From: Phycisphaerae bacterium
GTDB taxonomy: Bacteria; Planctomycetota; Phycisphaerae; SM23-33
DNA length: 64,000 bases
Assembly (NCBI GenBank): GCA_039683615.1
Contig: JBDKRA010000017.1
Location: 266,235 to 330,234 of the forward strand
Direction of reading: 5' to 3'
Both the position numbers and the translations under genes were made by a program. The number at the start of each line of letters is the position of its first letter. Positions within the stretch are counted from its first letter, which is position 1. The notes below the pieces were generated by a model. That model ran no database searches, was not told where the DNA came from, and saw only the letters and a program-made list of their open reading frames with translations. This document shows, piece after piece, positions 34,769-40,290 of this stretch.

Positions 34769-34787
34769 TAGCGGGGGCAGGTTTCGA
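34769..34787 (-). repeat. att site: duplicated 3' end of tRNA-fMet
   Basis: tagcgggggcaggtttcga versus tagcggggggaggattcga at 40250-40268 (17/19 identical). Confidence 0.88.
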
Positions 34788-34872
34788 CGGTAGTAAGAAG
34801 CCGCGACAGGTAGGATTCAGATACTGAGTAGATTAGGCCATTCGCAGTTGGATGGTCTTCGATATGTTAGTG

Positions 34873-35151
34873 CTAGACACTAAATATAGCCCCAGTATTC
34901 CAAGTCATTACTGCGCTAGCCATCATGGCTATAGCACTAATCAAAAGCCCAACTCCAAGGGTAATGAGTCGGGTCTTCCTTTTCGGGATCAACCATTGCA
35001 TTGCGACACAAAGAATAGTGGAGAGTAGTGCGATAGCTCCCACTGTAGCCTTGGCATTACCATGTCCAACCTGCAAGGTGAGGATTCCATAGAGTAGAGT
35101 GATCCAAAGCGCCAGAACGTAAGAGGGGTGGATAAGCAATGCGCTCTTCAT
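34873..35151 (-). CDS. Small 3-TM membrane protein (island cargo)
   Basis: RBS aaaggag; three hydrophobic segments; AT-rich. Confidence 0.6.
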   Translation of the reverse strand: MKSALLIHPSYVLALWITLLYGILTLQVGHGNAKATVGAIALLSTILCVAMQWLIPKRKTRLITLGVGLLISAIAMMASAVMTWNTGAIFSV

Positions 35152-35570
35152 GATCAGATCTCCTTTCCGCATCTTCCTCTGACAACGTCGCGTCGCGTGT
35201 CGGTAAATCGCTAGAGTAGTTGGCATATGTCCCATAGAGGTATTGTAAACGTGTGAACCTTATCGGGCAATTGTGCCAGCACGCAATGGGGCCGCCGCGA
35301 GTCGGGATAACCTCAACCAGGCAGTAGGGCTCTAACGGCGCTGATAACCTTTCCCGGCAAATGCCGCTCCAATGGCCCGACATAGGGGGGGCGACTCGCG
35401 GCGGCGGGTCCCATTGCGGGCGGTGGCATGAGCAGGACTCGGGCTGGCCGAATCCGGATCGCTTCCTTATCATGCGGGACATGGTCGGGCGTCACGTGCA
35501 ATCTTGGTGTCGGGGAAAGCCGGTGATCATTGCGTCCATCGGGGTCACGGTGGTGGGATGCGCAGAGGCG

Positions 35571-36515
35571 ATGTCTGAATTGGTGGATGCAGCGAGAGAG
35601 GGAGGGCGATATCCCGCGCTGAAGTGGCCTGTTGATCCGGAGGCATGGGTCAAGCTGTACCGTGGGCATCGGCGGCTGCAGCGGGTGGTGTTAGATCAGT
35701 TTCTGGGAGGGCGAGAGGTCATCGAAGGCGGTGAGGCGGAGGCTACAGTGTCCGACGTCGTGGAGTTGATGCAAGTGGGTCTGCGGCGGTCTGGAAGGAT
35801 TACGGGGGCAGAGGTGCATGAGGTGACGCGGATTCTGAAAGAGCACCCAAAGGAAGTCATGGAGGGGGCGGAGGCGGCGAGAGAGGCCTGGGAAGGGCTG
35901 ATGTCGGATGATGACAAGATTGGACCGGAAGACGACAAGGAGATGAAGGAAGCTTTGCGCCAGCCGGAGGTACTGTTCTTTTTGCTTGTTTGGGGGCCAT
36001 GCTTCTTTGAGTACGGGCAGTATCCGCCTCGACTGATGCGGAAGGCCCGCCAGGGTGACCCTGACGCGCTAGAGAAGATTCTGCGGCTGGACAAGCGGGC
36101 AATACATGATCCAAAGATTGCGCGGGAGTGGTCCACGGCCAGCATGAATCGCAACGCGTATTTTGATCGGCTGGCTGGGGCGCTTGCCGGGGAACCGGTC
36201 AAGCTATTGGGTTTGTCTCAAGTGAAGGTTCTGATGGCCGCGCTTCTATCGAACTTGTCGAAGCTGCTTGCAGATGGGGTAGAGCGGGCGTGTGAATCGA
36301 TGGGGCAGCCGGTTCCGCCTGCACTGATCCCACTGGCAAAGCGACTCAGTGGGCGGGATATCCGGGAGCTCTTTGACGCGTACCAGAAGGATGTTAAGAG
36401 GAACAGCCTGGCCTGCGATAACGATCTGCCTGGGGATAATGAGGCGCTGAAGAAAGCTCTGCAGCGGAATCGGCCTTTGTGGGATTTCCTCTTCGAGTCG
36501 GCGGGTCTTTCCTGA
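35571..36515 (+). CDS. Hypothetical protein (island)
   Basis: Long helical, charged ORF; start uncertain (ORF is open from 35361). Confidence 0.6.
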   Translation: MSELVDAAREGGRYPALKWPVDPEAWVKLYRGHRRLQRVVLDQFLGGREVIEGGEAEATVSDVVELMQVGLRRSGRITGAEVHEVTRILKEHPKEVMEGAEAAREAWEGLMSDDDKIGPEDDKEMKEALRQPEVLFFLLVWGPCFFEYGQYPPRLMRKARQGDPDALEKILRLDKRAIHDPKIAREWSTASMNRNAYFDRLAGALAGEPVKLLGLSQVKVLMAALLSNLSKLLADGVERACESMGQPVPPALIPLAKRLSGRDIRELFDAYQKDVKRNSLACDNDLPGDNEALKKALQRNRPLWDFLFESAGLS

Positions 36516-36582
36516 GGCGGGACATAGATTGCCTCGCCGGGTGTCCCGGCGCTCTTGACTGTGCAGCCGTAGAGTTGGCTGC

Positions 36583-38002: not shown

Positions 38003-38040
38003 TCTGGAGCGGAGACAGCGTGAAAAGAAATATGAGGGAA

Positions 38041-38093
38041 TATTCTTGATTTACTCTCAGAGCATAGAGTAGAATATACGGTGTTCTAGAGTA
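38041..38093 (+). promoter_or_regulatory. Sigma70-like promoter overlapped by TACTCT/AGAGTA operator boxes
   Basis: TTGATT (38046) N18 TAGAAT (38070); inverted repeat TACTCT-N8-AGAGTA at 38052-38071; another TAGAGTA at 38087-38093. Confidence 0.55.
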
Positions 38094-38105
38094 AGGAGTG
38101 GTGAT

Positions 38106-38525
38106 ATGAAGATCGAGGTATCGGCGGAGACATTTGAGAGGCTGCAGCGGCACTCTGAGCCATTGGTTGACACGGCCGAGAGCGTGATCATCAAACTATT
38201 GGATAGCTACGAGGCACGAAAGGGCGCGAAGATGACTATCGGGACAGAACGTCAAGATGACTCCAGGAGCGATGTGCCTACGAAAGTGGCAGAGCCGCAT
38301 GATCTACGAGGCTTTCAAAAAGAGGTTTGGGAGTTGGTTATCGAGCCGATGCCGACGAAGAGTTTCACTCTCCGAGATGTCTATGCGAGGGAGACATCGT
38401 TGGCAAAGCTTCGCCCACACGTGAAAGAGCTGCGAGCGTCAATTCGGGGTACGCTTGAGAAGCTGAGAGACAGAGGGCTTATCGAGTTCATCGACAATCA
38501 AGGAACGTACAGGAAGAATCGTTAG
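38106..38525 (+). CDS. SeqA-N-like RHH domain fused to a DpnI-C-like winged helix
   Basis: MKIEVSAETFERLQRHSEPLVDTAESVIIKLL resembles the SeqA N-terminus; FTLRDVY...IRGTLEKLRDRGLIEF...GTYRK resembles the DpnI C-terminal wH; RBS aaggag. Confidence 0.7.
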   Translation: MKIEVSAETFERLQRHSEPLVDTAESVIIKLLDSYEARKGAKMTIGTERQDDSRSDVPTKVAEPHDLRGFQKEVWELVIEPMPTKSFTLRDVYARETSLAKLRPHVKELRASIRGTLEKLRDRGLIEFIDNQGTYRKNR

Positions 38526-38535
38526 GGGGTGCGAG

Positions 38536-40290
38536 ATGATCAGAGCGGTAGGGTACATCAGGCGGTCAACAGACAAGCAGGATCTCAGCCTGGAGCAACA
38601 GGAAGCGAAGTTGCGCGAGTACGCGCTGTCGCAAGGCTGGGAGATGGTGGAGGTCTTTGCCGACGATGCCGTCTCCGGCAGCGAGATGGATCGGCCCGGG
38701 CTCAAGAGATTGCTGGACTATGCCGAGCGTGTCTGCGATGTCGGGGCGGTGGTAGCGTGGGATCGGAATCGGCTGGCGCGTCCCAAAGATCCCATGGACG
38801 GGATGCTCCTGGAGCGTCGGCTGATCGGCTGCGGCAAGCGGGTGGTGTATGCGGCAACGGGGCAGGAAGCGGATCGTTCGTTTGCCGGCGGATTGCTCGG
38901 ATATGTCGAGCACTACCAGAACGGGGATTATCTGCGCAAGCTCTCGCGGGACACGATGCGGGGCCTGGTCAACCGTGCGCAGCGCGGGCTGTGGACGGGC
39001 GGGCCTATTCCGTATGGGTATGACCGGCTGATCGTAGACCAGGACGGCGCGGCAAAGCGGATCGTTCGGGACATGCCGGATCGGTCGCAGGTGGTGCTGA
39101 GTCCGGAAAGAGGGGAGGTGGTCGAGACGGTTGCTGCAGGCCGCCGGTATTCCAAACAGGAGCACGAGCTGTGCACCCTGGTGCCGTCTGAATCGGCCAG
39201 AGTGCGGGCGGTGCAACGGATGTTCTGCGACTATGCGGCTGGCAAGCCGATTCGCAAGCTTCGGGATGAGTTGAACCGGACGGGGCTGCGGACTGCACGG
39301 GGCCGGATCTTCACGGCTGCGACAATCCATCACATGCTGGAGAATCATGCGTACGCCGGGGTGTGCGTTTACAACCAGCGGACGGAGAGCAAGTGGCACC
39401 GGCTGACGGGCGGCCAGAGCCGGGAGCGACAGGATGAAGGGTTGGAGACGCGGCCTGAGGCGGACTGGATCGTCACAGAGGATGCCTGGGCTGCCCTGGT
39501 GGATCGTGAGACGTTTGAGGCGGTCCAGAAGCGACGCAAGGCCTCCAAGATCGCCAATGTCCGGATGACGGGCAACAAGGTGCATTCGGAGAACCTGCTG
39601 ACGGGTCTGTTCTTCTGCGGGGTCTGCGGCGGAAAGATGTTCGGTTGGACGAAGCGGAACTCTCGGGGATACGGAAAGCGGTACTACACGTGCGCAACGC
39701 ACCACCGGGGCGATGAGGATGCCTGCCCGAAGCGGTACAGCATCCCGGCGGAACTGGTGGAGGATCATATCCTGGGATTGATCCGGCAGGATCTGCGGCG
39801 GCTGGCCGATGATGACAAGCTGCATGAGTACGTCGCGCAGGAAGTCCAGCGGCTGACGGGCGGCCAGGCTGACGCCAAGCGGGAACTGCAGCAGCGTCTT
39901 GCGGAAGTGGATCAACGGGCGGCGCGGCTGCGGGACCACCTGAAATCTTTGGATACTCAAACTGCCGAGACGTTGGGGCTGTACTCAGAAGCCAGGGAAC
40001 TTGCCCAGCAGCGTATGCAAGTGGAGTGTGACCTAGCCGACGCTCGCAAGGGTTCGCCGGAACTGCCGGACCTGGGCGAGATCAGAGACAAAGCCGCCGA
40101 AGCATTCGAGCGGTTGGAGGATGTTCTTACTGGCGGGACCATCGAGGAAAAGCGGGAATTGATCGGGCTCTATGTACAAACGATAAAGGCTGAACCGGAC
40201 TCCTACAGCGTCCAGATCAGCCTGTATCCCGCAATGTTTACTGCGGTACTAGCGGGGGGAGGATTCGAACCTCCGACCTCCGGGTTATGA
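38536..40290 (+). CDS. Large serine recombinase (resolvase, recombinase, zinc ribbon and coiled-coil domains)
   Basis: GYIRRSTDKQ catalytic Ser, DRNRLAR, GGPIPYGY, CGVCG...YYTC...CP; last codons are antisense to tRNA-fMet. Confidence 0.93.
   Translation: MIRAVGYIRRSTDKQDLSLEQQEAKLREYALSQGWEMVEVFADDAVSGSEMDRPGLKRLLDYAERVCDVGAVVAWDRNRLARPKDPMDGMLLERRLIGCGKRVVYAATGQEADRSFAGGLLGYVEHYQNGDYLRKLSRDTMRGLVNRAQRGLWTGGPIPYGYDRLIVDQDGAAKRIVRDMPDRSQVVLSPERGEVVETVAAGRRYSKQEHELCTLVPSESARVRAVQRMFCDYAAGKPIRKLRDELNRTGLRTARGRIFTAATIHHMLENHAYAGVCVYNQRTESKWHRLTGGQSRERQDEGLETRPEADWIVTEDAWAALVDRETFEAVQKRRKASKIANVRMTGNKVHSENLLTGLFFCGVCGGKMFGWTKRNSRGYGKRYYTCATHHRGDEDACPKRYSIPAELVEDHILGLIRQDLRRLADDDKLHEYVAQEVQRLTGGQADAKRELQQRLAEVDQRAARLRDHLKSLDTQTAETLGLYSEARELAQQRMQVECDLADARKGSPELPDLGEIRDKAAEAFERLEDVLTGGTIEEKRELIGLYVQTIKAEPDSYSVQISLYPAMFTAVLAGGGFEPPTSGL

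Follow-up and report, generated by a model that had tools for sequence, protein, structure and literature searches.

The integrative and conjugative elements of actinomycetes (AICEs) replicate as rolling circles after excision and carry an FtsK-like transfer gene, and RS1/CTXphi is a filamentous-phage satellite system. Among integrative mobilizable elements (IMEs), those with serine recombinases are described in a review as inserting inside genes with very short repeats and disrupting them, while tRNA 3' ends are given there as targets of tyrosine recombinases (PMC5704250). The nick site of the integrative and conjugative elements (ICEs) ICEBs1, ICESt3 and Tn916 is reported as CT'AA, placed in the 12-nt spacer of a perfect GC-rich inverted repeat with 7-bp arms, and the double-strand origin of Rep_trans proteins is described as identical to it (PMC9371924). 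Here we analyzed a 64,000-nt stretch of a Phycisphaerae bacterium (GCA_039683615.1, contig JBDKRA010000017.1; G000:C17:266235-330234 in our numbering), which we call the window; the assembly, G000, comprises 4.64 Mb in 53 contigs and is 94.9% complete, and G001 denotes the genome of a sister species in the same genus. It seems that positions 34769-40268 of the window are an integrated copy of a small plasmid-like element in the 3' end of the initiator tRNA gene, a reading to which we give a probability of roughly 0.8.

One end of this element lies in an intact tRNA-Met(CAT) gene (40249-40324, minus strand, found by ARAGORN). Because its C1 faces U72 and its anticodon stem holds three G:C pairs, the gene reads as that of the initiator tRNA (tRNA-fMet). 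A promoter-like site precedes it (40363-40335, promoter scan), it is identical to the G001 gene across the 74 nt compared, and a DNA query made of the tRNA and its flank found no second copy in the 94.9%-complete assembly. The final 19 nt of this gene (proximal copy, 40250-40268, its present 3' end) recur with 17 of 19 matches at 34769-34787, the far junction of the element, and the interval between the repeats is 5,500 bp. Allowing up to two mismatches, a search of the window for the 19-mer returned just these two sites, and none of 100 dinucleotide-preserving shuffles held any such match, which bears out the sequence-only reading that a 17/19 duplicate of the tRNA-fMet 3' end bounds about 5.5 kb. 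As a bare repeat the pair is one of 27 comparable families in 7 kb; its weight comes from register and context, since it begins at the last base of the tRNA, adjoins a terminator and has an element-free counterpart in G001. That terminator is a bidirectional hairpin (34731-34771; A-run, GC stem and T-run, by inverted-repeat and terminator scans), which lies outside the element, comes after the displaced tRNA 3' end on the minus strand and is homologous to the flank of a second element on contig C49. The GC content is about 0.49-0.65 inside the element versus about 0.70 in the host genes to the right, and the low-GC region spans about 30900-40600.

The gene at the tRNA end encodes a large serine recombinase of 584 aa (38536-40290, plus strand) with Resolvase, Recombinase and Zn_ribbon_recom domains (PF00239, 1.2e-21; PF07508, 5.6e-20; PF13408, 9.4e-15), an integrase match to phrog_95 (4.8e-81) and an N-terminal catalytic-serine motif of the YIRRSTDKQ type. 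The 3' half of tRNA-fMet encodes the final 13 recombinase codons and the stop. The recombinase gene ends in the attachment site, and therefore the element would supply the tRNA end and keep a single-copy essential gene intact. Because the IME review assigns tRNA 3' ends to tyrosine recombinases, a serine recombinase restoring a tRNA end is an unusual trait here.

In G001, ispG lies beside tRNA-fMet; TG comes immediately after the tRNA, then a terminator hairpin of other sequence and an MFS transporter gene, and no element is present. Relatives without the island had been predicted to show tRNA-fMet directly before the terminator at 34735-34766; the tRNA, TG and a hairpin do follow each other in G001, but the hairpin sequence differs. 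G001 has no counterpart of window 30900-34760, and its synteny is rearranged, with locus L027 matching, from its position 3217, the window from 44950. G001 is an element-free site, not a collinear empty site. On G001:C44 the 3' side of tRNA-fMet faces the homolog of window 44950 onward, and the other side of ispG faces 51391-56915 inverted. One of the G001/G000 rearrangement breakpoints coincides with the 3' end of tRNA-fMet.

Close relatives of the recombinase (49-61% identity) were found at 17 other loci (L031, L041, L047 = L132, L052, L054, L055, L062, L067, L076 = L130, L079, L081, L082, L083, L094, L097, L101 and L131). In seven of them (L052, L076, L079, L081, L082, L083 and L131) the recombinase open reading frame (ORF) runs into tRNA-fMet as in the window; L055 and L067 end within 150 nt, and the recombinase genes of L094 and L097 are truncated. 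Metagenome loci adjoining tRNA-fMet are L142, L160, L169, L190, L205 and L206. Perfect 19- to 20-nt copies of the tRNA end lie upstream in the same register in L052 (8,031 bp away, 20/20 by BLAST), in L169 at the same spacing and in L205 (8,388 bp); L169 and L052 are possibly one element sampled twice. In both the window and L052, the repeat identity ends at the same T-loop base, and this shared endpoint would fit site-specific recombination with the crossover inside the T loop or 3' of it. Large serine recombinases exchange strands at a 2-bp crossover between non-identical attP and attB; from the visible junctions, the crossover here could lie anywhere in the 19-nt repeat. Dyad symmetry was tried as a means of pinning it and rejected, the reconstructed attP sites (the attachment sites of the circle) of the window and L052 sharing weak arm similarity.

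The second pillar of the reading is the rep gene (36794-38002, plus strand), whose 402-aa product is predicted from fold and motifs to be a rolling-circle initiator with a Rep_trans, TATA-binding protein (TBP)-like fold. The AlphaFold2 (AF2) model has a mean local confidence (pLDDT) of 87 and a predicted template modeling score (pTM) of 0.79. The best six chains of the Protein Data Bank (PDB) in Foldseek all belong to 4CIJ, 4CWC and 4CWE (E values of 1.4e-9 to 1.2e-7), with TATA-binding proteins next, and VIA-align gave Z scores of 12.8, 12.1 and 11.6 to 4CIJ, 4CWE and 4CWC, respectively (root mean square deviation, 4.0-4.4; 217-220 residues), with TBP following at 7.6. The identity to the solved Rep_trans initiators is 12-14%. 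Residues 1-17 are disordered, the Rep fold starts at residue 18, no helix-turn-helix (HTH) family was matched, and about 100 additional helical residues follow at the C terminus relative to pT181-family initiators.

The active site of Rep_trans/MOBT proteins is described as three acidic residues on separate strands together with a central-strand Tyr, a Lys at +2 and a Glu at +5; in RelSt3 these are Y252, K254 and E257 plus three acidic residues (PMC6499999). In an alignment of 37 sequences, the invariant residues of our family include D25, R147, D149, D153, Y200, K202, E205, R232, E234 and R239. Y200-D-K202-x-x-E205 follows the YxKxxE pattern of motif III and lies on beta strand 195-201 of the model, while D25, D149/D153 and E234, candidates for the three acidic metal ligands (motifs N', I and IV), lie on strands 18-35, 138-157 and 228-238, a correspondence made by pattern. 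The family is large: a profile search of 1.84 billion cluster representatives returned 5,573 at an E value of at most 1e-3, 4,019 at 1e-10 and 1,730 at 1e-30. A word-indexed search returned 88 homologs, one of which is named "replication initiation factor domain-containing protein" by NCBI. The sole library match of the 402-aa protein itself is phrog_33635, "endonuclease" (8.6e-13). Among 37 relatives, five match PF02486 weakly (best E value, 1.8e-4) and two match Phage_CRI, and the rep paralog of the C49 element scores 18.1 bits against PF02486, whose cutoff is 29.6 (E value, 0.0022). Taken together, the model and the alignment place the initiator on a deep branch of the Rep_trans superfamily, beyond the reach of the Pfam model.

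At the start of rep lies a GC-rich hairpin (36784-36811, plus strand, from inverted repeats and a 38-locus alignment) with a stem of 8-9 bp and a loop of 10-12 nt that contains the rep start codon and CTAA. In the window it is a perfect 9-bp stem with a 10-nt loop; in the register of the alignment, which joins the window with 37 related loci, it has 8 pairs and a 12-nt loop. The stem is paired in 97.3% of the cells, and both sides have changed at four of the eight pairs (GC to UA 14 times, GC to CG 7 times, GC to AU 8 times). No shuffle out of 500 reached the observed covariation score, and slid controls collapsed. In the coding 3' arm, amino acids change (Pro to His, Ser to Arg) with the pairing preserved, and among synonymous loop positions the third base of codon 2 is invariant (38/38) and that of codon 3 nearly so (37/38). 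The loop tetranucleotide is CTAT in 23 loci, CTAA in 14 and CTCT in 1. As single-stranded DNA, 36516-36830 folds much better than its shuffles (z = -5.0), and the paralogous C49 element has an 11-bp perfect hairpin with CTAT in a 12-nt loop at its own rep start. The nick hairpin noticed in the sequence-only reading is thus real and conserved as a sequence feature, with CTAA in the published nick-site geometry, and by this analogy we propose it as a candidate nick site (double-strand origin or oriT). The upstream ORF stops 1 or 5 nt beyond the rep start in 29 of 35 sequences (34 related loci and the window), and the hairpin probably also couples rep translation to that ORF, which is compatible with a role as origin.

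Related loci were found in genomes (72) and metagenomes (80), 152 altogether. The 72 genome loci belong mostly to metagenome-assembled genomes (MAGs) labeled Phycisphaerae or Planctomycetota and to deltaproteobacterial lineages (Smithella, Syntrophales, Desulfobacterales and others), and one genome holds four copies of the family element. The family of mini-elements spans several phyla, and the search of other genomes upheld the idea of a recurrent element class, rep being followed by a recombinase, often near a tRNA, across the 72 genome loci. We scanned the first ORF of at least 150 aa past rep in 64 loci. It encodes a tyrosine recombinase in 37 (PF00589 in 36 of these and the SAM-like domain alone in the other), a serine recombinase in 12 and another family in 4 (NERD, HTH_3, Yip1 and rve); 11 had no family, and among these tblastn found three further serine recombinases. 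Because most members (37/64) carry tyrosine integrases, the serine integrase is one interchangeable module of the family; the earlier pairing of a serine integrase with tRNA-fMet stands for the subgroup, seven of whose 17 other loci show the same, but not for the family at large. A tRNA gene lies on the opposite strand 1.2-4.2 kb beyond rep in 32 of the 72 genome loci, and the adjoining tRNAs are varied (Lys, Thr, Glu, Leu, Ala, SeC, Arg, Ser, Pro, Asn and Met).

Within the host's class, the initiator occurs in 16 of 301 genomes, G000 included (E value of at most 1e-10), and within its own family in 1 of 42 genomes besides G000. Such a patchy distribution is what a mobile element would show. 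No published description of this initiator family in these phyla was found in the literature searched, as far as those sources go, which is no proof of absence. Some relatives carry further genes: L052 has a 1,165-aa KAP-family NTPase inside its repeats (2072-5569), L101 a GmrSD-type endonuclease gene just beyond the recombinase (13355-15292), and L029 a NERD nuclease gene after rep (3604-4398).

The proteins of the element were scanned against Pfam, PHROGs, NCBIfam and PADLOC, and no conjugation, capsid or morphogenesis family was matched, in keeping with the absence of conjugation and capsid genes asserted before. All genes listed earlier are present, but the list had omitted a 72-aa ORF (36583-36801, plus strand, by ORF analysis), whose stop overlaps the rep start. 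It has an RRxLASLIAR-like motif common to serine-recombinase-type loci, no significant Pfam family and no match in the other three libraries. Upstream of it, a 344-aa helical core protein is encoded at 35481-36515 (plus strand; the ORF opens at 35361, and homology starts at about residue 41). It has no family in the four libraries either, and its profile had no match among PDB sequences at E values up to 1. Its AF2 model is all-helical (pLDDT, 76.6), and fold searches gave nothing usable (best E values of 0.15 for Foldseek against PDB and 0.08 against BFVD; best Z of 5.6 VIA-wide). Homologs lie upstream of rep in 25 of the 72 genome loci and 26 of the 80 metagenome loci, with both integrase types. 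Both the 72-aa ORF and the gene of the 344-aa protein are conserved upstream of rep and count as core accessory genes, with candidate roles as excision directionality factor or replication regulator.

Two other genes are of a different kind. A 139-aa protein (38106-38525, plus strand) has a short N-terminal domain and a DpnI_C winged helix at residues 72-137 (Pfam, 4.5e-12). A DpnI-type restriction enzyme combines a nuclease domain with DpnI_C, and here the nuclease domain is absent: the protein matches only the last 69 of 256 positions of the PADLOC profile mREase_II (2.9e-8), and its structure-atlas matches are DpnI_C clusters. Its gene is low in GC, has its own promoter-like site (38046-38075, promoter scan) and is inserted between rep and the recombinase gene, where relatives have a gap of about 25-90 nt. 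The other is a low-GC gene for a small membrane protein with three transmembrane segments (34873-35235, minus strand, from the ORF list; 120 aa, with a likely start at 35151 after an AAAGGAG ribosome-binding site, giving 92 aa), which has no family in the four libraries. Because none of the 152 related loci carries a homolog of either, these genes are cargo of this copy and not parts of the class; the DpnI_C protein, once taken for a methylation reader belonging to the class, loses that place. Between the membrane-protein gene and the core gene, a long-range inverted repeat found by repeat search (35279-35421, intergenic) lies in a region whose single-stranded DNA fold (35236-35480) has a z of -2.67, and it may be a candidate single-strand origin or regulatory site.

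Several results weigh against the proposal of an integrated plasmid-like element with a Rep_trans initiator. The 402-aa protein has no PF02486 match even at an E value of 0.1 and no Pfam match at all, so that the profile check proposed in the sequence-only reading for 36794-38002 failed while the initiator assignment itself stands on fold (Z of 11.6-12.8) and motifs. The family profile found nothing among PDB sequences at E values up to 10, and the acidic residues were lined up with the solved initiators by pattern, not by superposed residues. The hairpin covers the ribosome-binding site and start codon of rep, and its conservation could partly reflect translational control. Six of the 17 close recombinase loci (L031, L041, L047, L054, L062 and L101) have no tRNA-fMet at the recombinase end though the sequence continues. 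No distal repeat was found in L076, L083, L131, L142 and L190 within about 9-12.7 kb searched, nor in L160 and L206 within 4.7-5.5 kb. No whole metagenome contig with the family (0/53) has a terminal overlap of at least 15 nt, the mark of a circular form, and none of five viral loci has one of at least 12 nt. Finally, the distal repeat has two mismatches, one of which would break the T stem; either mutations have arisen at an old junction, or the mismatches are natural differences between attP and attB and the crossover falls closer to the tRNA end, within its last 9 bases.

The last points lead to the alternative that the element is a fixed remnant, an old integration that has lost excision and persists as a cargo island. 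The two mismatches in the distal repeat, the adjoining decayed element with its truncated integrase, the rearranged synteny near the tRNA and the lack of a circular form among the 53 metagenome contigs would all agree with this. However, all five genes and the 72-aa ORF are open and full length against their homologs, the 9-bp stem of the rep hairpin is 100% complementary, the mismatches need not mean decay if the crossover lies within the last 9 tRNA bases, and G001 of the same genus lacks the element. We regard a fixed remnant as unlikely.

How an active element would pass between cells bears on two further alternatives, both minor and of about equal weight. In the first, it is a satellite of filamentous phages whose single-stranded circles are packaged by a helper inovirus, as in RS1/CTXphi or pDolos/Dolos. 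The initiator matches a PHROG, and its distant relatives (28-34% identity) lie beside Zot-type ATPases in the inovirus-like contigs L103-L105; according to one report, Rep_trans is the commonest filamentous-phage initiator (PMC13595969), and another describes a rolling-circle plasmid acting as an inovirus satellite (bioRxiv 10.1101/2023.11.28.569023). L103-L105 are viral contigs of 5-11 kb that look like inoviruses, with TSP3-repeat proteins in L104 and L105. One genome locus out of 72, L069 from Desulfobacterales, has a Zot gene (2648-3475) 3.5 kb from its family rep and tyrosine integrase. Nevertheless, Zot was not found in the available flanks of the other 71 or in the 94.9%-complete host genome, no packaging signal or coat gene was identified, and the hairpin motif was not found in L103-L105; packaging as a satellite is rather improbable here.

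The second alternative holds that the element is an integrative mobilizable element, whose initiator doubles as a MOBT-like relaxase and whose hairpin is an oriT, so that a co-resident conjugative element transfers it. MOBT relaxases are relatives of Rep_trans proteins that nick CT'AA in the same type of hairpin and drive rolling-circle replication of excised ICEs, as described in PMC9371924 and PMC5704250, and the latter also records IMEs of Firmicutes that pair Rep_trans/MOBT proteins with tyrosine or serine integrases. But the fusion of an N-terminal HTH with PF02486 is absent, and this HTH is said to mark ICE relaxases (PMC6499999). Neither VirB4 (PF03135) nor a coupling protein (PF02534) of a type IV secretion system (T4SS) was found in the 94.9%-complete genome, other VirB4-like and ATPase families not having been searched, and no related element examined has a coupling protein gene; helper-mediated conjugation is slightly more improbable still. 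That the hairpin is solely an RNA structure controlling rep translation, with ribosomes that end the upstream ORF opening a hidden ribosome-binding site and start, and no nick site, is very unlikely: the start codon in the loop, the G-run in the 5' arm and the 29 of 35 upstream ORFs ending 1 or 5 nt past the rep start are as translational coupling predicts, but the invariant synonymous loop bases and the match of CTAA/CTAT, loop length and stem type to known Rep_trans nick sites go beyond it, and the two roles are not exclusive.

The element described so far shares its site with another. The region next to the distal repeat holds a pseudogene fragment with the C-terminal 88 or so codons of a tyrosine integrase (34293-34559, minus strand), which is 75% identical over 76 aa (E value, 3e-40) to the intact integrase of the C49 element and matches Pfam Phage_integrase weakly at profile positions 109-155. 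Window 32956-33263, with a small HTH ORF and a 46-nt block, matches the C49 element as well. Because of these two matches, about 30900-34768 appears to be a decayed, older element of the C49 type in tandem, headed by the integrase fragment; no third copy of the tRNA end was found near 30900. This low-GC segment also contains a 546-aa protein without a family, the small HTH ORF at 32948-33187 and a SASA-type carbohydrate esterase (33264-34193; PF03629, 2.2e-55), which is probably cargo of the decayed element.

The C49 element itself (locus L003:4671-11314, about 6.6 kb) is apparently intact and has the same design. Perfect 42-bp copies of the tRNA-Arg(ACG) 3' end (4671-4712 and 11242-11283) mark its two boundaries, and its genes encode the rep paralog (28% identity), a BglII-type endonuclease, a HEAT-repeat protein and a tyrosine integrase. 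Both elements have, just beyond the distal repeat, a paralogous module of terminator, spacer and a truncated integrase of roughly the last 80 codons (window 34293-34768 and L003:4234-4670); the two modules are collinear with 74-76% DNA identity, the truncation point is about the same in each, and the genome has no further copy.

Other repeats were seen nearby. Between tRNA-fMet and ispG (40396-40544), a 72-nt sequence that contains inverted repeats occurs as two tandem-like copies (81% identity), and a core of about 30 nt recurs on other G000 contigs and in relatives. A sequence of about 47 nt at 25459-25505 has 34 copies with 84-96% identity on many G001 contigs and looks like a dispersed repeat of the genus. 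Partial 3' halves of tRNA-fMet (43-47 nt, 88-100% identity) occur in G007, G008, G016 and G030 on the contig of the full gene, 0.5-38 kb off, and in G010, G027 and G039 on another contig, which suggests that other islands with longer repeats also integrate at tRNA-fMet.

From the boundaries, gene families, fold, covarying hairpin and recurring modules described above, we infer a cycle of excision, nicking and replication for the integrated plasmid-like element. The recombinase would excise a 5.5-kb circle, in which attP is re-formed across the point where the recombinase gene ends. At CT/AA in the loop of the extruded hairpin, the initiator would then nick the plus strand and become covalently bound via Tyr200, and the nicked end would prime leading-strand synthesis for rolling-circle copying. 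The displaced strand would be converted by host enzymes, perhaps at 35279-35421, the structured stretch between genes, and the recombinase would re-insert the circle into tRNA-fMet, supplying the last bases of the tRNA. Serine integrases need a directionality factor for excision, and the 344-aa and 72-aa proteins are candidates for this role or for replication control.

Should the element prove active, it would show that large serine integrases can target and rebuild a tRNA 3' end, and its recombinase would be a compact integrase whose attB, the initiator tRNA, is universal and conserved. The Rep_trans superfamily would be far larger than the Pfam model shows, the 5,573 representatives being nearly all unannotated, and an origin on a start codon would be a case of coupling between replication and translation. 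The two core genes without known fold would be candidates for new excision or replication factors, and a simple vehicle able to replicate and integrate itself would be present in Planctomycetota and sulfate-reducer lineages, groups in which mobile elements are little known. A broader proposal joins these parts: an unrecognized class of minimal integrative rolling-circle replicons that spans phyla and thousands of protein clusters, in which the origin in the initiator start codon ties replication to Rep synthesis through hairpin extrusion and nicking on DNA and ribosome melting on RNA, the Rep core swaps tyrosine and serine integrases, the serine lineage is specialized on the initiator tRNA, and the elements spread as phage-packaged single-stranded circles, a new satellite type in Planctomycetota and Desulfobacterota. 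As a joint claim, this is doubtful.

Among known systems, the filamentous-phage satellites and integrative inoviruses, pDolos and RS1/CTXphi among them, share with the element, as far as they are described, a Rep_trans-type initiator, a small genome and an integrated state, and relatives of our initiator lie in Zot-bearing contigs; the element differs in having no morphogenesis or coat genes, no Zot found in the genome, and integration by its own serine or tyrosine recombinase. The pSAM2-type AICEs likewise integrate into tRNA genes (PMC2440964), whereas no FtsK-like transfer gene was matched in the element in Pfam, PHROGs or NCBIfam. The MOBT relaxases NicK, Orf20 and RelSt3 (ICEBs1, Tn916 and ICESt3) are described as cutting CT'AA in a 12-nt spacer between GC-rich 7-bp inverted repeats (PMC9371924), which the rep hairpin resembles, and as also starting rolling-circle replication of the excised element (PMC9371924, PMC6499999), as our initiator may do; here there is no HTH domain, coupling protein or T4SS, and CTAT (23/38) is commoner than CTAA.

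The pT181-family initiators RepDE (4CWC, 4CWE) and RepSTK1 (4CIJ) resemble ours in the fold, in the central-strand Tyr within a YxKxxE-like motif, by pattern in the acidic residues on separate strands, and in a hairpin, situated at the rep gene or inside it, with the nick motif in its loop; for the element, cleavage there is predicted. They differ in sequence (12-14% identity) and in belonging to free plasmids, whereas the element integrates and its putative origin overlaps the start codon. Firmicutes IMEs, in the account of PMC5704250, are likewise small (5-18 kb) and combine their own site-specific recombinase with a Rep_trans-type protein and variable cargo without a transfer apparatus; interchangeable integrase types and tandem accretion at one site are shared too. 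In contrast, the hosts here are Planctomycetota (Phycisphaerae) and Desulfobacterota-type MAGs, the initiator is below the Pfam threshold and without an N-terminal HTH, a conserved core gene without known fold is present, and no VirB4, coupling protein or Zot helper was found in the genome; unlike the serine IMEs of that account, the element targets a tRNA 3' end and would restore it by a 19-nt mimic. Small integrative elements that combine cargo with a rolling-circle initiator and a site-specific recombinase are of an already known kind, represented by Firmicutes IMEs, AICEs and RS1-like satellites, while the initiator lineage, the candidate origin on the start codon, the core genes without known fold, the host phyla and a serine integrase that would rebuild the initiator tRNA are new.

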